From: a virus
Lineage: Duplodnaviria > Heunggongvirae > Uroviricota > Caudoviricetes
IMG/VR virus record: IMGVR_UViG_3300034069_000533
Span: 65,947 to 129,946 of that record
Direction: 5' to 3' (one strand)
Length of the DNA: 64,000 nt
The notes under the pieces: model-generated
What the model was told of the DNA's origin: nothing
Seen by the model: only the letters and a program-made list of their open reading frames with translations
Databases searched by the model: none
Made by a program: the position numbers and the translations under genes
Part shown: in pieces, positions 3,258 to 33,685 of the stretch
How the letters are laid out: every line of letters starts with the position of its first letter
Numbering within the stretch: the stretch's first letter is position 1

Positions 3258-3743
3258 TTAAGCAACAGCCGGGGAATGAAGCTCAACCTGAACAATAATC
3301 TGCGATCCGGTATCAATTCCCGGCACAGACAGATTAGCGGTTAAAAACTTCGCATTCGGCAGCGTCGCAGTGCCGGCATCGGAAAATAGGCCGGTCGCCG
3401 GATCATACTTCGCAACCGCATCCTTCGTGCAGGTGCCCGACGCGCGGCCCCAAATACGGCCGCGCCGCATCACGGACATTGCATCGCCCTGAAGGTAATT
3501 GTCGCCATTACCAACAAGCCGCGCGCCGCCGCGATGATCGTGGATGGCGACGCCCTCTGGAACGTTGGTCCCAATCGGCAGAACCGACACGCCAGTTGCC
3601 GTCACGGAAGCCACAACAGAGCCATAAGGCTGCGCCGTCGCACCGCAAGGCACCGTCACCTTATCGGTAAAGCCGCTGTCGGCAATCATGCCGGCATAAG
3701 CGGGCGGGTAATCGTAATTGGCGTTCCAAGTAACCGGCTGCAT
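3258..3743 (-). CDS. hypothetical structural protein (possible head decoration/DUF2190-like)
   Basis: 161-aa Gly/Thr-rich ORF between scaffold and capsid genes. Confidence 0.3.
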   Translation of the reverse strand: MQPVTWNANYDYPPAYAGMIADSGFTDKVTVPCGATAQPYGSVVASVTATGVSVLPIGTNVPEGVAIHDHRGGARLVGNGDNYLQGDAMSVMRRGRIWGRASGTCTKDAVAKYDPATGLFSDAGTATLPNAKFLTANLSVPGIDTGSQIIVQVELHSPAVA

Positions 3744-3758
3744 CTTAAATACTCCCTA

Positions 3759-4928
3759 TTAAACGCGAGCCAGCGCGCGGCGAAGGTCAGCGGAGGAACG
3801 AATAACCTGCGCACTATCCTGACGCGGCGCCGGATTACCTTCCTGGCCACCGCCATTCGCAGCAATACGGTTACGGTCGTTCGTCTCGGTCGCCTTCTTC
3901 ACCTTGGCAGTCTCGGCATCAAAAGCGAACGCAACGTAAGCGTCTTCCTTGCCGTCAAACTTATAAACGTCAGGCGCCAGCTTATTCGTAACCGCCTCAC
4001 GAATGGCGCGCGGCGTCATATCCGGCTTGGCGTCAACGCCATGCGCCTTGGCCACGGACTCTAGCTCTAGCCGGGCGCGAACGTCCGCAACGGCGTCCTC
4101 ACGGGCCTTGGCAATCGCCGCCTCATGCTTGGCAACGTCAGCCTTCAGCGCGTCACGCTCAGCCTCTAGAGCGTCGGCGCGGGCCTTCTCAGCCTTGGCG
4201 GCATCGGTGCCAGCCTTGGTCGCGTCGGCAATAGCCGAATCGGCCCGCAGCTTATCAGCCTCGCGCGCCGCCTTCTCGGCAGTCAGCGCCTCGTTGACGC
4301 GATCAAGCGCGGCGGCAACTTCCGGCTGCGCCTGATAATCCAGGCGGTCAACGCGGACGGTAACAAGGCGGGGGAGATTGCTCGGCTCGGCCATAATGCT
4401 TTGATCCTCAATCTTAACAGATGCTTCCGCTGCATCCTCACGGTCTAAACGAAGCCTTGCATTACCAGCACGGCCCCGCGTGACAACGGCTAAATGATTG
4501 CCGCGAAGGTTCCTTTGAATGGCATCGTATCGCTGCCCGTCAATCTCGCCGGGCGTTTCGTCAAGCTCAAGGCTGTAACCTAGTGATAACTCCCGTCGCG
4601 CTCCAATCTTCTTTGTCCGGTGAATGACGATTTCTGCCCGGAGATTGGAGTCCTCGCGCTTGCCCTCGGTCAAAACGGCGCCAACAATGGCGTCGTCGTT
4701 GTCTTCATTGACTCGGCCGGGGTGTCCGTCCGTTACCGGCAAGCCGCGAAGGCTATTCAAATGCTCATCGGAAAAGACTTCCTCTGGCGGACGGTATTCG
4801 CGCTGCACCGTACCGTCAGCCCGGCGGTATTCAAAAATGCCGGAACGCGTTAAAATTGGATTATCCTTAATCCAACCTTCGGGCGTCTTTGCCGCTTTGG
4901 AAATGTCAATAAAATCGTAACGGAGCAT
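3759..4928 (-). CDS. DUF2213-like prohead scaffold/protease protein
   Basis: 389 aa; N-terminal globular domain followed by a long A/E/K-rich coiled coil (AKAEKARADALEAERDALKADVAKHEAAIAKARE), typical of scaffolding proteins; position upstream of the capsid gene. Confidence 0.5.
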   Translation of the reverse strand: MLRYDFIDISKAAKTPEGWIKDNPILTRSGIFEYRRADGTVQREYRPPEEVFSDEHLNSLRGLPVTDGHPGRVNEDNDDAIVGAVLTEGKREDSNLRAEIVIHRTKKIGARRELSLGYSLELDETPGEIDGQRYDAIQRNLRGNHLAVVTRGRAGNARLRLDREDAAEASVKIEDQSIMAEPSNLPRLVTVRVDRLDYQAQPEVAAALDRVNEALTAEKAAREADKLRADSAIADATKAGTDAAKAEKARADALEAERDALKADVAKHEAAIAKAREDAVADVRARLELESVAKAHGVDAKPDMTPRAIREAVTNKLAPDVYKFDGKEDAYVAFAFDAETAKVKKATETNDRNRIAANGGGQEGNPAPRQDSAQVIRSSADLRRALARV

Positions 4929-5155
4929 TTTAATAACCTTCCGTTAAATACGCCAACTCGTTCGTTGACCTCTAGTTCCAAAAGAATGAGTCAAGCAATC
5001 TTTTTTCTTGCGGCCCGTGGCGGATTGAATTATGTTCAAGGGGTCGCGGCGGTTTCTGGCCAGAGGCTTGGAGGCGGTTGCAAACGTATTCTTGGCTTAG
5101 TTGCTGAGCGTTCCGTCAGAGACGGGAGCTATTGCATTAGCCGCCGCGACACTGT

Positions 5156-5232
5156 GCGGGCTTATTCCAATCGGTAGAGAAATGCAGCTTAAACCTGTTA
5201 CAGTGTGGGTTCGAATCCCACAGCCCGCACCA
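5156..5232 (+). tRNA. tRNA, class-I architecture with 7-nt loop cTTAAac (anticodon UAA, Leu-type) and encoded CCA
   Basis: Acceptor gcgggct/agcccgc, T-arm gtggg-ttcgaat-cccac, discriminator A plus CCA; hand-folded. The variable arm is only 5 nt, unusual for tRNA-Leu. Confidence 0.55.
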
Positions 5233-5284
5233 TTCATCGCTTGACCATCCATCCCGCAACCATTAAACCCCAAATCAGCGCTAC

Positions 5285-5358
5285 GCTCCCGTAGCCCAAT
5301 TGGCAGAGGCGTTAGGTCTAGGCCCTAATCAGTGTTGGTTCGAGTCCGACCGGGAGTA
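5285..5358 (+). tRNA. tRNA, class-I architecture with loop tcTAGgc (anticodon UAG, or CUA if shifted); C33 is non-canonical
   Basis: Acceptor gctcccg/cgggagt (one G-U pair), anticodon stem ttagg/cctaa, T-arm gttgg-ttcgagt-ccgac; short variable arm. Confidence 0.5.
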
Positions 5359-5379
5359 TTTCGCGCTTTTTGGTTTTAT

Positions 5380-5453
5380 CAGAGCGTAGCTCAGCTTGGT
5401 AGAGCGTTTGCTTTGGGAGCAAAATGCCGTTGGTTCAAATCCAACCGTTCTGA
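5380..5453 (+). tRNA. tRNA-Pro: tRNA-Pro (TGG)
   Basis: D-arm tagctcagcttggtagagc, anticodon loop tTTGGGa, T-loop ggttcaaatcc, acceptor cagagcg/cgttctg. Confidence 0.75.
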
Positions 5454-5459
5454 TTTTAT

Positions 5460-5540
5460 GGTAAGGTGGGCGAGTGGTTGATGCCGTCAGACTGTAAATC
5501 TGATCCTTCGGGCGCGTTGGTTCGAATCCAACCCTTACCA
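5460..5540 (+). tRNA. tRNA-Tyr: tRNA-Tyr (GTA), class II with long variable arm
   Basis: Acceptor ggtaagg/ccttacc, anticodon stem tcaga/tctga with loop cTGTAAa, variable arm tccttcgggcgc, T-arm gttgg-ttcgaat-ccaac. Confidence 0.75.
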
Positions 5541-6344
5541 TTACCTCAAAACCTGCAAGCCAGGGAACACCGGCTCAGAATTACACCGGCAACGAATCTC
5601 GGAACCGGGCTTAATGCCCGGATCACTCCATTTATAGGTTTTGCCATCACGCACCCGATGCGTTGGTCTAACGCGCTCATCTTGGCTAGTGCGCCAGATA
5701 TATTCGTCAATGCCAACCGAACGCTGCCGCATTTCGGCTAGCTGGCCATTCAATCGGCCAATCTGATCGCGCGCAATTAACTCAGCCCGACTACGGCCAA
5801 CGCCCGCGCGATCCTGCACAATCTTTGCAAGGTCTTTCATGGACGCGCCTTGCGTAAAGGCTCGCACCATTTCCCCACGCATTTGCTCAATAATGCGGTC
5901 AGGGATTGATTTAATTAATGCTAAGTTTTCCTGTTCCCACGCTTGTAGCATACCCGCCAATTGCGGCTCGCCGCGCAGAATATCCACCCCATATGCCGCC
6001 CTTACCTGCTTTCGCCAATCGGTTAGGTTCTTTGCATTAATCTGACGGCCAATGGGTTGAACGGTATTTAAGCCGTCTAGCAGTCTTTTTGCGATCTTAT
6101 CTGCGACGCCAAGCAAAAAACTAGCTAGCGTGGAATACCATGCGTCAACGCGCTGGTTACGCTCAGCGGCAACATCAGCAATAATCATCGGGCCAATGGT
6201 TTTTAGATCATTAAGCGCCGCGCGCTCCAAATCATTAACGATAGCTAGCAGCTTCGCTTTATATTCTAGCTCTGCCGTTAATGGGTAGCGAAGCGGCGGA
6301 ATTTTATTCTTCCGCCGCCGCACCATGGTTGCCGCTATGGCCAT
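5541..6344 (-). CDS. phage head morphogenesis protein, Mu F-like / SPP1 gp7 family
   Basis: 267 aa; C-terminal signature RVRPTHRVRDGKTYKWSDP...CRCNSEP is typical of Mu F-like minor head proteins; sits between portal and scaffold. Confidence 0.6.
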   Translation of the reverse strand: MAIAATMVRRRKNKIPPLRYPLTAELEYKAKLLAIVNDLERAALNDLKTIGPMIIADVAAERNQRVDAWYSTLASFLLGVADKIAKRLLDGLNTVQPIGRQINAKNLTDWRKQVRAAYGVDILRGEPQLAGMLQAWEQENLALIKSIPDRIIEQMRGEMVRAFTQGASMKDLAKIVQDRAGVGRSRAELIARDQIGRLNGQLAEMRQRSVGIDEYIWRTSQDERVRPTHRVRDGKTYKWSDPGIKPGSEIRCRCNSEPVFPGLQVLR

Positions 6345-6856
6345 TAGCCGCCGCTGACGGTATCGCCCGCAGGCGTCTCGCCGGTCGGCTCGGTAGTCAC
6401 CCCGCCAGGGGCAGTATCGTCGCCGCCAGGGCCGGTCCCGCCGCCGGACACGGTATCCGTACCGTCGCCCGGCTCGCCGCCCTCTACGGACGTTCCCTGC
6501 GTCACCGCCTCAACGATGCCAGCCACGCCCGCGCGCAAGTCCTTGTTGAAGGCATCGAACGCGGCAAGCTGCTCAGGCGTGGCACCCTTGGCCAGCGCAT
6601 CGGCAACGGCGCGGTCAATACGCGCCGGGATGCCCTCGGCCAGCGCGCGAACGCTGTCGCGCACGGTCCCAAGGTCGGAAATGGTAGAGCGCAGTTCGTC
6701 AAGCTCACTCTGCATGGTCGTGGACATTTGGCGTAATCCCTCAATGGCTTGGGCAACCTCGCTGGCGGGCACCCCGCCAGAAAGCCGGTCCAGCAGACTC
6801 AGAATATCATCCATCTTGGTCGCGCTAAACGACACGGTAAAAGGCATCTTACGCAC
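6344..6856 (-). CDS. hypothetical protein with Gly/Thr/Pro-rich C-terminus
   Basis: 170-aa ORF translationally coupled to the portal and Mu F-like genes. Confidence 0.35.
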   Translation of the reverse strand: MRKMPFTVSFSATKMDDILSLLDRLSGGVPASEVAQAIEGLRQMSTTMQSELDELRSTISDLGTVRDSVRALAEGIPARIDRAVADALAKGATPEQLAAFDAFNKDLRAGVAGIVEAVTQGTSVEGGEPGDGTDTVSGGGTGPGGDDTAPGGVTTEPTGETPAGDTVSGG

Positions 6857-8231
6857 TCCCTGCCAGGGTATCGTTGCCGCCCGTTACCGTATCGCCAGCG
6901 TTGGCCGGATTAGCCGGGTCAAGCGGCTCATCGGGCAACGGCGGCTCATATACGGTATTCTTTAAATCCAATTCAGGAAAAGCAAGGTCGGCACCGGAAC
7001 GCGCTTCCTCTGGCGAAATCGCCTCAATATCGCGGCCAATCTGCAAAGCCTCCATGGTGGTTTTGCGGGCATTGGCTTTGATTTGATCGGTTTCCGCCAT
7101 TTCCTTTGCTGATGGAGAAAACAGCGAGCCAAATAGCAAGCGCCATGTCTCAGGCTCGCTTTCCTTGGCAACCTTTTGCGCCCATAGCAGCCCGGCCAGA
7201 TATTCAATTGCCGGGCGCATATTGCGCTCATGAATCGAGCGAATAAGCGAGTGATAAATAGATTGCTCGCCCTCGCCCCGGCTGCCTAATCCCTTAATGT
7301 CAGAGCCAAACAAAATAACTTGCGGGATTTTGGACGAAGCAGATAGCGCGGTCTGCATCGCGCCAACCACAATATCAATACCGCCAAGGCTCAGGTCAAT
7401 AATGGTATATTTATCGCCATCACCCTCGCCGTTGCCCGGCCCGCCATCAATGGTGATGCCATTCAGTAAGCCGCGCACCGCATCAGTCAGCGCGATTTTG
7501 TCACGGACGATGCTTTTGCCTTCTTCAGAGCCAAGCAATTCCGAAAGTCCGGCCATGGAATGCACCGCCTGCTGTTTCCGCTTCATAATCTCGCGGGCAA
7601 GCTGCAAGCACGTCCGGTAATTGCTCAGGTCTTCGTGGCAGGCGCCAAGCACGGACTTGCCCTGCCAGGGCAGATTGGATGCTACCCGATAATTACGGCC
7701 TGACTTGTCGCCGGTAAACTTAATCAGGCGACTTTCATGCACCACAAATGGCAAGCCGTATTCTGGCGATAGCTCATAAAAAACCGGATGCCCGTAATTT
7801 TTCAGCCGGGCATCGGTGTAACGCTGCTCCCTGGCATTAATAGACATGCCGGGATAAGGGATAAGACTATCAATAACCTCAAGGTTATTTATATCAATCG
7901 GCTCGCGTAAATCTTTGCCATCTTGTGCCAGAATAAACAGCGCAGAAGCGCCACGCAAACGAGCAAGCCGAATTGCCTCGTTGATTGCTGCAAAAGCGTC
8001 AATCCGATCAAACTCATTTAGAATAAAGTTATTTTCGTCACCTTCAATGGTAAAGCCGCAGGATACCGCGTCATCCGCTGGCTTCTCAACAATGGTGGCC
8101 GCAATACCGTCGCGCTCATAAAGCCATTCGGAATCAAAAAACAAATGATTATTGCTGAGAGCGCCATAGGGCCGCATGCCAGAAACAACGTCTAGCAGTC
8201 CATCGGCGCGAATGCCGCTCATCTGATTCAT
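6849..8231 (-). CDS. phage portal protein (DUF1073-type)
   Basis: 460 aa, directly downstream of the large terminase with overlapping stop/start; size and acidic C-terminus fit a portal. Confidence 0.55.
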   Translation of the reverse strand: MNQMSGIRADGLLDVVSGMRPYGALSNNHLFFDSEWLYERDGIAATIVEKPADDAVSCGFTIEGDENNFILNEFDRIDAFAAINEAIRLARLRGASALFILAQDGKDLREPIDINNLEVIDSLIPYPGMSINAREQRYTDARLKNYGHPVFYELSPEYGLPFVVHESRLIKFTGDKSGRNYRVASNLPWQGKSVLGACHEDLSNYRTCLQLAREIMKRKQQAVHSMAGLSELLGSEEGKSIVRDKIALTDAVRGLLNGITIDGGPGNGEGDGDKYTIIDLSLGGIDIVVGAMQTALSASSKIPQVILFGSDIKGLGSRGEGEQSIYHSLIRSIHERNMRPAIEYLAGLLWAQKVAKESEPETWRLLFGSLFSPSAKEMAETDQIKANARKTTMEALQIGRDIEAISPEEARSGADLAFPELDLKNTVYEPPLPDEPLDPANPANAGDTVTGGNDTLAGSA

Positions 8232-11200
8232 CTTAATAGCGCCTTCGCTCTTTCTAGTGCCGAAGTCTTAACTTGCACAATTTCAAATGCGTCGCTTAAT
8301 CCGTCAACAATATCATCATGCGCACCGCCGGGAAACGTACCTAATTCTTCTAATAAAAACCTATTCCAATCGCCGCGAAGCATAAAAACATTGCCTGCAT
8401 TAACCTGACTGGCAAATGGCGCGGCGCGCGTTGCCTTGTCGCCGGTCGGCCGGGAAATGCTGATCTTGTAGCCCGCCAGTTTGCGTGACAGGTATTGGAC
8501 TTGCGCCTTACCAGCTTGGCCAGGGTCTTGCGGCAAGCGGATGGTGACGTTTTTGCCGTCCTGGCTGGCTGTCCCTGTAAGCAATCGCTCAACATCATCC
8601 GGCCCGCCACGCTCGCGCTTAAGGTCGGCAATGACGTAGCCGCCATTGGGCATCCTGCCGAGTAAGGGTCCAGCGGTCCAGTCTGGATCACGCCCGCCGG
8701 TTTCTGCGGTGCTGGCCAAATCCCAAGCGCGGCAAAACGTGCAACCGACAGGGACCGCATCAATGATTTGGATATTGCCGGTTTTAAAAATGGAGCCTTC
8801 CAACGGGCGCGGGCTTTGCTGGTAAAGCGAAAACCAATCGCGCTGACCGGGGCCTTTTTCGGACTCGGCTTTGATCTTTAGGATTTCAGCAGCGTAGCCG
8901 TAAGAATCGTCGGCCCATAACATTTCGCCCGGAGCGCGGCCTAATTGATCGTTTTCTTCGGCAATGGCCGGGATTTTAATGACTTCCCAATCGCCAAAAT
9001 CATCTTGTAATAATCGTCCAGCTAAATCGTCCTCGTGCCAGCGTGTATTATGGCTAACCAAGCCATTTGCAATAAAATTTTCTGTATTCGCAATTTGAAC
9101 GTCAAAAACCTCCTCAACCCCCGCCGGGGTTATCGTCTGGATTTGGTCTAGCGTGAAGTCGCAAATAGGCGGCAAGCGCATCTGCGGCTTCTGACGTTTT
9201 AATATAGCCTGCTGCAAGGTTGCAATCATTGCAGAGAAGCGCCCGCACTTTGCCGGAATCGTGGCAATGGTCAACGCACAATTTTCCGCCCCAATGGGCG
9301 CGAACGTTTTTGCCGGGAGGTTGCCCGCAAACAGCGCATAATCCATTTTGCTGCTTAACAAAGGCGTCGTAAATTTCTGCTGTAATTCCGTAGCGGTGTT
9401 TAATATGCGCCGCGCGCCTGTCTTTAGCATTAACGGAAGGCGGTCGCACGCCATCCGCCCAACGCTTTTTATTGTAATGAGACGCGCAATATCCGCGCAC
9501 CCTAACCGGCTTGCCGCAGCCCTCATGGGCGCAATTGATGCCTTTCCACTTACCCCATTGGCCCGGAAGATTTCTTGCCCCTGGCGTAAGTTTCTCGTCC
9601 TGATCCATTGCGGCTGTCCATTAACGCTCACAAGGAACGGATGCCTTGCGTTTGCCCGGACAGTTTTACCCGAAGTCATCTTGATTTCAAAGACTGGATC
9701 AGGACCATTATTTTTCCAGTTTAGCACTTTTGATGTTGACAAAACGCCATTATCATATGTCGCAACATTGTCGCCAACCCGAATGTCCCTAAGCGGCCTC
9801 TCTGATCCATCGTGCATTAAAACCGGAGTGTCGCCGGTCATACACTGGACCAAGCACACGGACGCGCCCGGCTTTAAACGAGTGCGTAAATCGGCCCTAT
9901 ACCAGTTATAAGCCTTTTCCCGATATGTCGGGCTGTCAGCGTCAGCCCGTGACTTTACCGGGTCATCAATAATAGCGCAGTTATGAACAAGTAAACCATT
10001 TGCAAAAAAGCATTCCGTATCTTCTATTTGCAAATCATAAACGTCTTTTTCTCCGCATACTCGCTCAACCATGGCCACAGAATCACAGACGGAATTGAAC
10101 GCTCCGCTGCGTGAAGTTTGGTGTGGCATGAGCGACAAAGAATAACTAAATTCTCTAATCTGTGATCCGTTGGATTCATATTTATATGATGCACATTCGG
10201 GTTTTTGTCCGAATTGCACACCACGCATTTCAAACTGTCGCGCTCCCAAATCTTCTGTTTCGCAGCAAACCATTGCCGCGTCATGCCGCGATCCGATCCG
10301 TTCCCGTGCCGCCAAGCTGGATTTGCTTTGCCCTTCATTAATTCCGAATGGCTGGCGTTCTTGCATTTCACACTGCAATAAGCCCCGGTTCCCGCATGCG
10401 TCTTCGGCGTGAACGTATCTCCGCATGCTTGACAAGCTCGCGCCAGAATGGGCTTGCGTCTCATGTCCGCAGCCTTGCGGACCCCATCCACTCGACAAGC
10501 TTCTGAGCAAGTTGAACGCGTGCGAGGCATTCCCTCCAACGAATTGCCACAAGCTACGCAGGTTCGATCCAGCATCCCCCGCGCCGCGTTCGTCGTGCGA
10601 GTTGAGCATGTTTTGCCGCAGTAAAGTGGCCGGTCGGGGAATTTCCTGACTTCCGCCGCAAGCCTCTCGCCCGGCGCTTGGCATCGCGCGCAGGAGAACG
10701 TCAGCCACAGCGAGGGACGCAGCTTGTGTCCAACCGTTAGCAGTTTTGAATCTATGGTTTCCCGTTGCTTCAACCACTTTTCCAGCGGCAGAGCTAATCC
10801 GCCAGATATTCGCGGACTTGCGCCTAGCGACAGCAACCACTCGCTTAAAAACTGTTTTATTGGTGCGTTCGTCATAAGACAAAACATAGCCGGTTTTCGT
10901 GCCGGGCAAAACGTCTTCAATCGGGACTTCACCTAACGGTGTCGTTACCATCGTTCCCGCAACGATGCAATCTGCACGGAAGCCAGCAATACCGCCACCA
11001 ACACCGGCAGATTTATAAGTGCATCCGTTGGACGCGCTCCACATTTCTACAGATTCATTTAATAGGCCATAACCTAAAATATCTTCATTATCTTTAATCA
11101 TTGTCTGCACACGCTTGCTAAATGAATCAGCAAGCGATGACGTGTGCGAAGCTGCCAAAATATTCCTATTGGGAAAATTCAGCATATACCATGCTGGAAA

Positions 11201-11476
11201 CAATACGCTAACGTAAGTAGATTTGGCCGATCCTGGCGGCATCGTAACGATTAATCGCTTAATGTCACCACGCGCCACGGCTTCTAGTTTGGAAATTAAA
11301 AAACGATGGTGAAGCGCTGGCTCCTGTTTTAAGGGATGCAACGCATACGTCGCCCAATCAGTTAAGCTTGCTTTTATCCGGCGTTTCAGAATCTCCGTCA
11401 GCTTGACTCGCAAGGAAGCTGGCAAGTTCGTCTCTAAAAGCCGCGTCAAGTTCTTCGTTGTTAAGTGCTGCGACAT
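8228..11476 (-). CDS. terL: terminase large subunit interrupted by two inteins
   Basis: Walker A PPGSAKST in the N-extein. Intein 1 runs from C-IVAGTMVTTPLG (block A), through TGNH (block B), to FANGLLVHN-C. Intein 2 runs from C-MTGDTPVL through ARHPF to FIANGLVSHN-T. The C-extein resumes with TRWHEDDLAGRL, a terminase nuclease motif. The reading frame stays open for 1082 codons. Confidence 0.75.
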   Translation of the reverse strand: MSQHLTTKNLTRLLETNLPASLRVKLTEILKRRIKASLTDWATYALHPLKQEPALHHRFLISKLEAVARGDIKRLIVTMPPGSAKSTYVSVLFPAWYMLNFPNRNILAASHTSSLADSFSKRVQTMIKDNEDILGYGLLNESVEMWSASNGCTYKSAGVGGGIAGFRADCIVAGTMVTTPLGEVPIEDVLPGTKTGYVLSYDERTNKTVFKRVVAVARRKSANIWRISSAAGKVVEATGNHRFKTANGWTQAASLAVADVLLRAMPSAGREACGGSQEIPRPATLLRQNMLNSHDERGAGDAGSNLRSLWQFVGGNASHAFNLLRSLSSGWGPQGCGHETQAHSGASLSSMRRYVHAEDACGNRGLLQCEMQERQPFGINEGQSKSSLAARERIGSRHDAAMVCCETEDLGARQFEMRGVQFGQKPECASYKYESNGSQIREFSYSLSLMPHQTSRSGAFNSVCDSVAMVERVCGEKDVYDLQIEDTECFFANGLLVHNCAIIDDPVKSRADADSPTYREKAYNWYRADLRTRLKPGASVCLVQCMTGDTPVLMHDGSERPLRDIRVGDNVATYDNGVLSTSKVLNWKNNGPDPVFEIKMTSGKTVRANARHPFLVSVNGQPQWIRTRNLRQGQEIFRANGVSGKASIAPMRAAASRLGCADIARLITIKSVGRMACDRLPLMLKTGARRILNTATELQQKFTTPLLSSKMDYALFAGNLPAKTFAPIGAENCALTIATIPAKCGRFSAMIATLQQAILKRQKPQMRLPPICDFTLDQIQTITPAGVEEVFDVQIANTENFIANGLVSHNTRWHEDDLAGRLLQDDFGDWEVIKIPAIAEENDQLGRAPGEMLWADDSYGYAAEILKIKAESEKGPGQRDWFSLYQQSPRPLEGSIFKTGNIQIIDAVPVGCTFCRAWDLASTAETGGRDPDWTAGPLLGRMPNGGYVIADLKRERGGPDDVERLLTGTASQDGKNVTIRLPQDPGQAGKAQVQYLSRKLAGYKISISRPTGDKATRAAPFASQVNAGNVFMLRGDWNRFLLEELGTFPGGAHDDIVDGLSDAFEIVQVKTSALERAKALLR
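9114..9608 (-). CDS. HNH endonuclease ORF nested in intein 2 of terL, in a different frame
   Basis: 164 aa with CAHEGCG...CASHYNKKRW...CAVCGQ...LCVDHCHDSGKVRALLCNDCN, a clear HNH/EndoVII-like signature; frame offset relative to terL. Confidence 0.55.
   Translation of the reverse strand: MDQDEKLTPGARNLPGQWGKWKGINCAHEGCGKPVRVRGYCASHYNKKRWADGVRPPSVNAKDRRAAHIKHRYGITAEIYDAFVKQQNGLCAVCGQPPGKNVRAHWGGKLCVDHCHDSGKVRALLCNDCNLAAGYIKTSEAADALAAYLRLHARPNPDDNPGGG
10024..10932 (-). CDS. Zn-finger/HNH endonuclease ORF nested in intein 1 of terL, in a different frame
   Basis: 302 aa; the C-terminal half has several CxxC pairs and CVVCNSDKNPNVHHIN...DHRLENLVILCRSCHTKLH (HNH); the N-terminal ~90 aa overlap the Hint N-domain and look non-protein-like. 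Confidence 0.45.
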   Translation of the reverse strand: MKSRLKTFCPARKPAMFCLMTNAPIKQFLSEWLLSLGASPRISGGLALPLEKWLKQRETIDSKLLTVGHKLRPSLWLTFSCARCQAPGERLAAEVRKFPDRPLYCGKTCSTRTTNAARGMLDRTCVACGNSLEGMPRTRSTCSEACRVDGVRKAADMRRKPILARACQACGDTFTPKTHAGTGAYCSVKCKNASHSELMKGKANPAWRHGNGSDRGMTRQWFAAKQKIWERDSLKCVVCNSDKNPNVHHINMNPTDHRLENLVILCRSCHTKLHAAERSIPSVILWPWLSEYAEKKTFMICK

Positions 11477-11741
11477 TTAATGATCCGGTTAAATCAACGC
11501 TCTGCTTTGGCTTGCCCCAACCACGGTCAAGAATTTCCTTGGCCGCAGAAACGCGCGCTGCCGCTGGCTGCTTACCGTTCTTTGCAATGCCAACTAATGT
11601 GGTAATTGCAAGGTCAGTATGCTTGCGCGCCTCTGCCTCAAGCTGCGCAAAGGTTTCAATATAGGTTTCTGGCTTAACTTTGCTGCGCCTGCCCCGGTTT
11701 TCCGAGGCAAGCGGCTGATTCATGTCATTAAACTTGACCAT
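11358..11741 (-). CDS. putative terminase small subunit
   Basis: 127-aa basic/acidic ORF immediately upstream of terL; position only. Confidence 0.3.
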   Translation of the reverse strand: MVKFNDMNQPLASENRGRRSKVKPETYIETFAQLEAEARKHTDLAITTLVGIAKNGKQPAAARVSAAKEILDRGWGKPKQSVDLTGSLNVAALNNEELDAAFRDELASFLASQADGDSETPDKSKLN

Positions 11742-11759
11742 AATAAAACACCCAATTAA

Positions 11760-12164
11760 TTACCCATATTGTGCCTTGCGCAGAGCGTCGCGCGCAACAG
11801 CCGCGTCCGTCCGCTCTTTCATTCTGGCCGAGAAAGCGGCTTGCCGGGGATCGTACCCATTCAAGTCCTCACCCTTAACGAAGCTCATGCCAGCCGCGAT
11901 AGGCTCCGGGGCAGGCTCCGTCACGGGCTTTGGCATCGGGAGGCGCTGAGACAGCATCACCGCCGCCTCTGCCGCCTCCTGGCAGCGCTTGGCCACGTCT
12001 GGCGAGCCTAGCCGGGTTAGCTCGCGCGCCGCCTCTAGCAGCGTGTCAGCCTGCGCCATGATGGCGGCGCTGTGGGCCTCAGCCGCCAGCCGGTCAGCCT
12101 CGCGCTTGCGCGCGGAACGCTCTGTTGCACTCATCGCCCGGTCGCCAATAGGTCGCTGACCCAT
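11760..12164 (-). CDS. hypothetical protein
   Basis: 134-aa ORF with RBS tccttctc-type leader upstream. Confidence 0.35.
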   Translation of the reverse strand: MGQRPIGDRAMSATERSARKREADRLAAEAHSAAIMAQADTLLEAARELTRLGSPDVAKRCQEAAEAAVMLSQRLPMPKPVTEPAPEPIAAGMSFVKGEDLNGYDPRQAAFSARMKERTDAAVARDALRKAQYG

Positions 12165-33610: not shown

Positions 33611-33685
33611 TGGTTGCCCTGCCAGGATTCGAACCTAGACCCTCGCATTCAAAGTGCGATGTTACTACCGTTAAACTACAGGGCA
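33611..33685 (-). tRNA. tRNA-Gln: tRNA-Gln (TTG)
   Basis: Minus-strand read: acceptor tgccctg/cagggca, anticodon stem tcgca/tgcga with loop cTTTGaa, T-arm ctagg-ttcgaat-cctgg, encoded CCA. Confidence 0.7.

Follow-up and report, generated by a model that had tools for sequence, protein, structure and literature searches.

Inteins are classically in-frame elements, in which the nuclease is a domain of the same polypeptide. The subject of this study is the large terminase gene (terL) of a virus of the Caudoviricetes (IMG/VR record IMGVR_UViG_3300034069_000533, positions 65,947 to 129,946; this whole stretch of 64,000 nucleotides is referred to as the window), which contains two inteins, here called intein 1 and intein 2, each with a nuclease open reading frame (ORF) in another frame. 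Inteins with an out-of-frame nuclease are already known as a class, and both elements of the window are homologous to described ones. In 2015, it was reported that terL of Brucella phages (Tb, Pr, Iz and relatives) contains an intein-encoded HNH gene that is out of frame (PMC4422536), and the records of these phages annotate terL as 'intein present' together with an overlapping 'putative HNH endonuclease' coding sequence. The Brucella phage intein occupies the same site as intein 1 (RAD in front of the intein, which runs from C to HN, and C(V/A)IIDDP behind it), and its HNH protein is 36% identical and lies at the same +1 offset. Unlike in the window, the +1 frame of Brucella phage Pr has a stop at amino acid (aa) 267 and the HNH gene starts after the N-terminal part of the splicing domain (Hint-N), without the 62-codon overlap described below; moreover, Brucella phage terL carries one intein only, compared with two in the window. 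Inteins of actinophage terL with an endonuclease VII-like homing endonuclease in frame 3 were described by Gosselin, Arsenault and Gogarten (bioRxiv 10.1101/2025.01.02.630785); the carriers are exactly the Gordonia phages that match intein 2, and a secondary ORF outside the splicing domain is the typical case there. Intein 2 is a direct homologue of these inteins, with the same site in the C-motif and the same +2 offset; in comparison with Gordonia phage Keitabear, its endonuclease VII-like protein is 54.5% and its Hint-N 62% identical. Unlike in the actinophage carriers, intein 2 shares terL with a second, unrelated intein that bears a homing endonuclease gene (HEG).

A cyanobacterial dnaX intein with an out-of-frame LAGLIDADG homing endonuclease under frame-dependent selection (bioRxiv 10.64898/2026.09.14.751524) and ShiLan, a hidden HNH in phage methylases (PMC11855218), resemble the window in that the host frame stays open across a nuclease gene in another frame and selection depends on the frame. 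The nuclease families and the host genes are different, ShiLan is not associated with an intein, and the portions of the two papers that were consulted describe no dual-selected overlap with a splicing domain. In fractured genes, split inteins are found with a free-standing HEG between the halves, and a model in which the HEG invades the intein was proposed for them (Dassa et al. 2009, PMC2677866). A HEG of free-standing type is likewise associated with an intein in the window; in contrast to fractured genes, the host frame is continuous, as for cis-splicing, and the HEG is nested and overlapping instead of lying between two genes. New at this locus are the co-occurrence of both types in one gene, a carrier phage that differs in G+C content and ribosome sites from the actinophage carriers, and a dual-coded overlap of the HNH gene with both Hint-N and the C-terminal part of the splicing domain (Hint-C), of which no report was found in a search of open-access papers and bioRxiv preprints.

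We consider it most probable (roughly 0.85) that terL harbours two mobile class-1 inteins, each hosting a free-standing-type HEG in another frame, and that dual coding, internal initiation and homing take place at this locus, with the HNH gene overprinted on Hint-N and Hint-C. According to this mechanism, a free-standing-type HEG would have been inserted in the linker of each mobile intein, in different frames. Ribosomes in the terL frame would traverse both inteins, the nuclease DNA acting as a disordered spacer that needs only to be free of stops, and a terminase of 486 aa, with Walker B and the C-motif restored, would result from protein splicing. Initiation at ATG 10875 (+1) would yield a 283-aa zinc-ribbon HNH nuclease and initiation at ATG 9608 (+2) a 164-aa endonuclease VII-like nuclease. 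In a mixed infection, terL alleles without an intein would be cleaved by the nested nucleases within the conserved DNA that encodes these motifs, and in the course of repair the intein would be copied into the empty site together with its HEG (homing). In intein 1, the HEG would be overprinted on Hint-N (62 codons) and Hint-C (about 22 codons), so that nuclease and splicing domain are entangled; the most economical order of events would be invasion of a mini-intein by a free-standing HNH gene, the 5' end of which was later extended over Hint-N. The features concerned are the following (pLDDT, predicted local distance difference test).

8228..11476, minus strand: terL precursor, one uninterrupted ORF of 1082 codons with two class-1 inteins
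10970..11476, minus strand: N-extein, aa 1-169, with the P-loop MPPGSAKST and the C-terminal end ...FRAD; pLDDT 83-94
9980..10969, minus strand: intein 1, aa 170-499, 330 aa, class 1 (Cys1, TGNH block B, terminal HN, +1 Cys)
10024..10875, minus strand: nested HNH gene, +1 frame, 283 aa (N-terminal extension, CxxC zinc-ribbon array, HNH core, C-tail); a second in-frame ATG lies at 10887
10690..10875, minus strand: dual-coding segment 1, 62 codons, Hint-N in the terL frame and HNH N-terminal extension in +1, both conserved
10094..10689, minus strand: linker of intein 1 as read in terL (about aa 263-461), open, unconserved and predicted disordered; the same DNA gives the HNH zinc ribbons and core in +1
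10024..10093, minus strand: dual-coding segment 2, start of Hint-C, aa 462-484 (...DSVAMVERV...), and HNH C-tail (ILWPWLSEYA...)
9845..9979, minus strand: middle extein, aa 500-544, Walker B CAIIDDP through ...CLVQ
9047..9844, minus strand: intein 2, aa 545-810, 266 aa (Cys1, terminal HN, +1 Thr)
9114..9608, minus strand: nested endonuclease VII-like gene of 164 aa in the +2 frame, with an ATG that overlaps the Trp codon in QPQW, a Hint motif
8228..9046, minus strand: C-extein, aa 811-1082, TRWHEDD and the RNaseH-like nuclease domain (Terminase_6C)

The original prediction, made from the sequence before any database search, held that terL is open for 1082 codons (8228-11476) and contains two intact Hint domains, and both points were borne out, the first by the ORF coordinates on the minus strand and the second by profile searches. 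With hidden Markov models, the ORF was matched to Terminase_6C and TIGR01630, and weakly to Terminase_6N and a T7-type terminase model. Pfam Intein_splicing matched two stretches of terL (E = 1.9e-29), and the NCBIfam models of the intein N-terminus and C-terminus (TIGR01445 and TIGR01443) gave two matches each. The residues of class 1 inteins, namely a Cys nucleophile, a terminal His-Asn and a +1 Cys or Thr, are present in both: C170, TGNH at 238-241 and H498-N499 followed by C500 in intein 1, and C545 and H809-N810 followed by T811 in intein 2, where block B reads NARH, with Asn replacing the Thr of TxxH. Intein 1 is inserted between GFRAD and CAIIDDP, immediately N-terminal to Walker B, and intein 2 between CLVQ and TRWHEDD in the ATPase coupling C-motif, which corresponds to site TerL6-f in Kelley et al. 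2016 (PMC5050341). TerL without both inteins has 486 aa, and the intein-less junctions read GGTATTGCTGGCTTCCGTGCAGAT joined to TGCGCTATTATTGATGACCCGGTA and GGCGCGTCCGTGTGCTTGGTCCAG joined to ACACGCTGGCACGAGGACGATTTA. The gene is continuous and not divided into two ORFs as the host gene of a split intein would be. It was shown earlier that the TerL6-f intein of phage Chandler (gp6) splices in a reporter assay (PMC5050341). The Chandler intein has the same +2 endonuclease VII-like ORF, and splicing of the two inteins of the window would be expected from homology to it.

No nuclease domain was detected by Pfam in the terL frame. In an AlphaFold2 model of the whole precursor, built on a 22-sequence alignment, pLDDT is about 25-30 at aa 258-462 and 640-774, as compared with 80-93 in the exteins and 60-80 in the Hint domains. 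The intein centres had been described as low-complexity and motif-free in this frame; the absence of motifs stands, but the composition of the linkers is only mildly biased (entropy 3.9-4.0 versus 4.1 bits).

In shifted frames on the same strand, the intein centres are open at 10024..10932 (minus, 302 codons, offset +1 nucleotide) and 9114..9608 (minus, 164 codons, offset +2 nucleotides). Both had been proposed to encode HNH nucleases. They do encode nucleases. The first is of the HNH type and the second belongs to the Endonuclease VII family (PF02945), with 62.2 bits against a Pfam gathering cut-off of 23.6 and 78 of 82 profile positions covered; it was also matched by PHROG 2914 (E = 1.6e-25). 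For the first, the ORF start GTG 10932 had to be replaced by a conserved ATG at 10875. The HNH protein matched PHROG 1271 ('HNH endonuclease', E = 1.8e-26) and the IscB HNH model (9e-9), and scored 19.0 bits with Pfam HNH PF01844, under the cut-off of 21.4. Its catalytic motif lies between two CxxC pairs, and the core residues C217, C220, H229, H230, N242, C247, C250, H251 and H255 are invariant in 5 sequences. An AlphaFold2 model of the +1 reading, made from a shallow alignment of 8 sequences, has a mean pLDDT of 75, with residues 10-100 at 82-92, and a Foldseek search of the PDB with this model gave only weak HNH or zinc-ribbon matches (E of about 0.05).

The stop frequency in the shifted frames had been put at about 3% per codon. 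In the parts of terL not occupied by the nested ORFs, 47 stops were counted in the +1 frame and 73 in the +2 frame, which amounts to 6-8% per codon, about twice that estimate, so that open runs of 302 and 164 codons are not due to chance. The earlier argument that two frames are unlikely to be open together was found to hold for one of the overlaps: on synonymous recoding of the HNH gene, the terL frame was open across the 195 HNH-coded codons in 0 of 5000 trials, whereas on recoding of the endonuclease VII-like gene it was open across 132 codons in 9-15% of trials, and the latter overlap taken alone is therefore cheap rather than improbable. Each nuclease ORF lies within an intein, in another frame, and leaves the terL frame uninterrupted, which is the arrangement of an out-of-frame nested HEG.

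The two nested proteins were compared by tblastn with the genomes of isolated phages, and the loci were then fetched and their frames compared. Matches to the HNH protein within annotated terminase genes were found in 41 Brucella phage records, Ralstonia phage RS-CA1 and Gordonia phage Clown, and matches to the endonuclease VII-like protein in Gordonia phages Keitabear, Affeca, Sedona, Angelicage and relatives and in Mycobacterium phages Phlyer, Chandler, Pipefish and Athena. The loci used for the frame comparison were the isolates Brucella Pr, Ralstonia RS-CA1, Gordonia Clown and Keitabear, and Mycobacterium Phlyer and Chandler, ten loci from a protein collection and a metagenome scan, and seven from IMG/VR; for the most part, the metagenome scan yielded distant HNH cores, and L015 was its only full relative. 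The terL frame is open in every related locus examined, with HNH genes always at +1 and endonuclease VII-like genes always at +2, and both elements occur together also in terL of the relatives P0005 and P0021. Differences in the overlaps are concentrated at third positions of the nuclease frames, the numbers for codon positions 1, 2 and 3 being 21/14/73 (window versus P0002) and 40/32/90 (window versus P0008), and identity in the nuclease frame is 0.33-0.86. Read in the terL frame, the linker shows no higher identity than in the third, non-coding frame (0.65 versus 0.64 and 0.28 versus 0.30), and the exteins show the normal substitution pattern for the terL frame. Purifying selection in the linkers therefore acts on the nuclease frame and not on the host frame. 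Genuine dual coding with nested homing endonucleases, one of the explanations offered in the original prediction, is supported by the recurrent offsets and the frame-specific selection; lack of conservation of the HNH-frame ORFs in homologues had been named as a result that would speak against it, and the outcome was the opposite.

The HNH gene overlaps the splicing domain with its first 62 codons on Hint-N and its last 22 or so on Hint-C. The location of the secondary ORF outside the splicing domain thus applies to intein 2 but not to intein 1; in intein 2, the endonuclease VII-like gene overlaps Hint-N by about 17 codons without extra synonymous constraint, in agreement with the published description. 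ATG 10875 is formed by the codons for Tyr-Asp (TAT-GAC) in VLSYD, a motif of Hint. At the homologous position, an ATG is present in every window-type sequence of the comparison, which comprised 8 loci and 5 called proteins, and in 3 shortened alleles as well. It is followed by a conserved +1 peptide, M...E(W/L)LLSLGA..SG..LPL..WLKQRETI....VG.R.RPSLWVTFSC, and the retention of RETI in +1 fixes the third bases of the codons for TGNH (block B) in terL.

As a measure of constraint, those terL-frame positions at which the two members of a sequence pair have the same amino acid were taken, and the fraction with the same codon was determined, for 21 pairs. This fraction is 0.28-0.37 in the exteins and at intein aa 170-189, rises to 0.45 at aa 190-199, is 0.50-0.73 (mostly 0.60-0.73) at aa 200-289 and 0.65-0.90 at aa 440-479, and falls to 0.38 from aa 480, the +1 stop being at aa 484. 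The step from about 0.33 to about 0.67 coincides exactly with the limits of the +1 ORF. The last 16 residues of the intein have 81% protein identity with codons at the baseline (0.39), hence recent ancestry of the intein cannot explain the step. In pairs with Brucella Pr, Clown and P0021, which do not have the extension, Hint-N is at baseline (0.31). A second, independent subfamily (L078-L083, L015 and RS-CA1) shows the same codon step where its +1 ORF opens, and its extension peptide reads KLS..VR.LG(Y/F)TESPL..EWLKLRETI. In L080-L083 of this subfamily, the +1 HNH ORF was observed to continue past the C-terminus of the intein into the Walker-B extein codons; for L080 (terL aa 236-540), the intein ends at N532 and the +1 stop is at aa 540, which gives 8 overlapped extein codons in addition to Hint-N, the linker and Hint-C, and the sole canonical start is a TTG.

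The extension is predicted by AlphaFold2 as a helix-strand-helix-strand unit with pLDDT of about 89-92. It gave no PHROG match, and tblastn of the 64-aa extension against phage genomes returned matches at chance level only. The C-tail (PWLxEYA), which overlaps the start of Hint-C, is an ancestral part of the nuclease. Several cluster representatives of 230-260 aa have no extension and start directly at the first zinc ribbon, and a free-standing HNH relative without the extension (L076, 2501-3283, 260 aa) lies two genes upstream of an intein-less terL (3664-5205), and may represent either the ancestral state or an HNH protein associated with the terminase. We lean slightly towards the view that the HNH gene became sequence-entangled with its own intein, in that its N-terminal 62 or so residues were probably overprinted on Hint-N after a free-standing HEG had entered a mini-intein, that both frames have since been under selection in terL of many divergent phages, that deletions are limited to the middle of the nuclease, and that the overlap stabilises the selfish pair.

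Shortened alleles of intein 1 form a deletion series that matches this expectation, since the start and the first domain of the HNH gene lie inside an essential splicing domain and deletions would be tolerated only in the middle. In L085 (P0011), an intein of 175 aa is almost wholly dual-coded by a +1 ORF of about 137 aa, which consists of the N-terminal extension, the intact HNH core and the tail, with the zinc ribbons deleted. L086 (P0007) and L014 (P0008) have kept extension and tail and lost the catalytic HH..N. Synonymous constraint on Hint-N is as high in the shortened alleles (0.68) as in the full-length ones. The deletion end points differ among them, and independent recent deletions are the simplest explanation and fit these data. 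The use of such 'mini-intein' alleles as a nuclease-free control for the constraint on Hint-N failed, as the shortened +1 ORF is still present.

With regard to mobility, terL of P0002 is 78% identical to that of the window over aa 22-543 (N-terminal exteins and intein 1), but contains intein 1 only and has site 2 empty. Empty C-motif sites were found in seven relatives including P0002, and the TRWHEDD-coding DNA is conserved in the other six. Between the window and Gordonia Keitabear, identity is 62% in Hint-N of intein 2 and 32% in the C-extein, and for P0005 the pattern is reversed; the DNA of intein 2 aligns with Gordonia phages at 64-71% despite G+C contents of 51% versus 67%. A sporadic distribution with intein-less alleles is therefore combined with incongruence of inteins and exteins, as in mobile inteins, and the pattern of intein 2 is, judging from the sequences, that of a horizontally moving element. 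Homing itself and the specificity of the nested nucleases are predictions. It was further observed that terL of P0010 (807 aa) has no intein 1 and contains an intein of about 345 aa at the C-motif site, the middle of which (about 200 aa) matched neither the endonuclease VII-coded linker nor a Pfam nuclease domain; this intein may hide another out-of-frame nuclease.

Several observations weigh against the mechanism proposed above. The sequence pairs in the constraint statistics are phylogenetically related and their counts are not independent. Even in alleles that have lost the catalytic HNH residues, the N-terminal extension is still open and under constraint, and it may have a role apart from nuclease activity. 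ATG 10875 has no Shine-Dalgarno (SD) sequence and a T-rich upstream region, where most genes of this phage have AGGAG-type sites, and the endonuclease VII-like ATG has only a weak GGA upstream. Predicted mRNA accessibility at the HNH start gave no consistent signal in 8 homologues (percentiles 0.20-0.93), and a scan for internal sigma-70 promoters found 4 matches versus 3.8 expected. Expression of the nested genes is a prediction from the reading frames.

A further point on this side is that the HNH protein could also, or instead, be a terminase-associated packaging HNH, as in HK97-like phages, co-expressed from terL. The position of the free-standing relative L076 two genes upstream of an intein-less terL would suit such a function, and a functional link with the terminase was speculated upon for the Brucella phages (PMC4422536). 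We regard this as improbable, given that the nested HNH gene is always found within the intein and travels with it; the loss of catalytic residues in P0007 and P0008 and the intein-less alleles in related terL genes fit a selfish HEG and not an essential packaging factor.

It is about equally doubtful that the synonymous constraint on Hint-N stems from an RNA or DNA element, such as a structure for translation of the nuclease or a recombination or target sequence, and not from a translated extension. Such an element would account for the constraint that remains in shortened alleles without a functional nuclease and for the lack of an SD sequence at the HNH start. Against it, the +1 frame over Hint-N is open in all window-type loci, where the +2 frame has 2-9 stops; as lone evidence this openness is weak, since it is retained in 14-65% of synonymous recodings per locus (product about 5e-4 for 7 loci). 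The constraint is, moreover, continuous from the conserved ATG into the body of the nuclease, the +1 peptide is conserved at the amino-acid level with conservative replacements, the extension is predicted to be folded, and the most compact allele (L085) joins exactly this extension to an intact HNH core.

Programmed frameshifting (+1 into the HNH gene and -1 into the endonuclease VII-like gene), which had been offered earlier as a possible explanation, would give fusions of N-extein, partial Hint-N and nuclease. It would relieve the difficulty that neither nested start of the window has a good SD sequence, and in the window the open stretch in +1 goes back to aa 182, 19 codons upstream of the HNH ATG. 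Nevertheless, the start of the endonuclease VII-like gene is at the same position in 6 of 6 homologues, being an ATG or GTG to which the Trp codon in xW(I/V)R, a Hint motif, contributes, and is preceded by GGAG or AAGGAG in P0008, P0021 and Phlyer. Stops in the shifted frames lie close to the starts, namely 1-3 codons upstream of the HNH ATG in P0005 and L073 (+1 frame) and 4-5 codons upstream of the endonuclease VII-like start in P0008, P0005 and the window itself (+2 frame). Neither a slippery heptamer nor a stimulator was seen to be conserved, and an Rfam scan of 7800-12000 for introns or frameshift elements gave no match at E<=1. Frameshifting is accordingly very unlikely, and low-level internal initiation is favoured on sequence grounds by the conserved starts, the upstream stops and the synonymous constraint that begins at the ATG; a low level would be expected for a toxic nuclease. 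A HEG encoded by a group I or II intron, as the term 'intron-encoded' in the Brucella note would imply, was rejected because of the same Rfam result and the continuous terL frame.

That the shifted ORFs are relics left by sequencing or assembly indels or by ancient compensating frameshifts, with the inteins reduced to mini-inteins with junk linkers, would agree with the unconserved and predicted disordered terL-frame linkers and with the degenerate alleles in which the HNH catalytic residues are deleted, but is effectively refuted by identical offsets at all related loci examined, independent assemblies and finished isolate genomes included, by purifying selection on the nuclease frames with invariant zinc and catalytic residues, and by the lack of any in-frame nuclease fusion among the best 150 of 184 cluster representatives (E<=1e-30).

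Recent evidence that an intein can be served by a separate nuclease gene in another frame is extended by this locus, in which two unrelated out-of-frame solutions stand side by side in one essential gene. It supports the view of intein origins in which splicing came first and the nuclease invaded later. If the overlap with Hint-N is translated in both frames as proposed, it would provide a clear example from nature in which about 190 bases encode two folded domains at once, useful for the study of overprinting, gene entanglement and the annotation of hidden genes. Gene callers miss or mis-split such loci (L073, L074 and L075), which constitutes a systematic annotation trap for them. In these three, the automatic calls took the HNH ORF, fragmented terL and left its N-terminal part uncalled; the terL frame is open there for 830-838 codons.

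The start of terL is ambiguous within 11341-11476. ATG 11476 lacks an SD sequence and gives a 119-nucleotide overlap with a TerS-like ORF (11358-11741); the Joint Genome Institute gene call begins at codon 46, and alignments with homologues begin at about codon 16-22. The gene lies in a phage head module with this TerS-like ORF, the portal gene (6849-8231) and genes for head morphogenesis, the protease and the major head protein. The sequence of the window is identical to that of a 130-kb metagenome contig of the Joint Genome Institute (P0001). The G+C content of terL is about 51%, and from this and the AGGAG-type ribosome sites it would appear that the phage may lie outside the actinophages. 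In a search for the host, the portal protein and the HNH alignment gave no match when used as queries against representative bacterial genomes. An antisense ORF of 187 codons within intein 2 (9348-9911, plus strand), for which there is no family match, is probably a side effect of the constraint on the sense frames. Four tRNA genes (Leu-TAA, Leu-TAG, Pro-TGG and Tyr-GTA) are located on the plus strand at 5156-5541, between the minus-strand head-morphogenesis and protease genes, and a fifth (Gln-TTG) lies at 33611-33685 on the minus strand.

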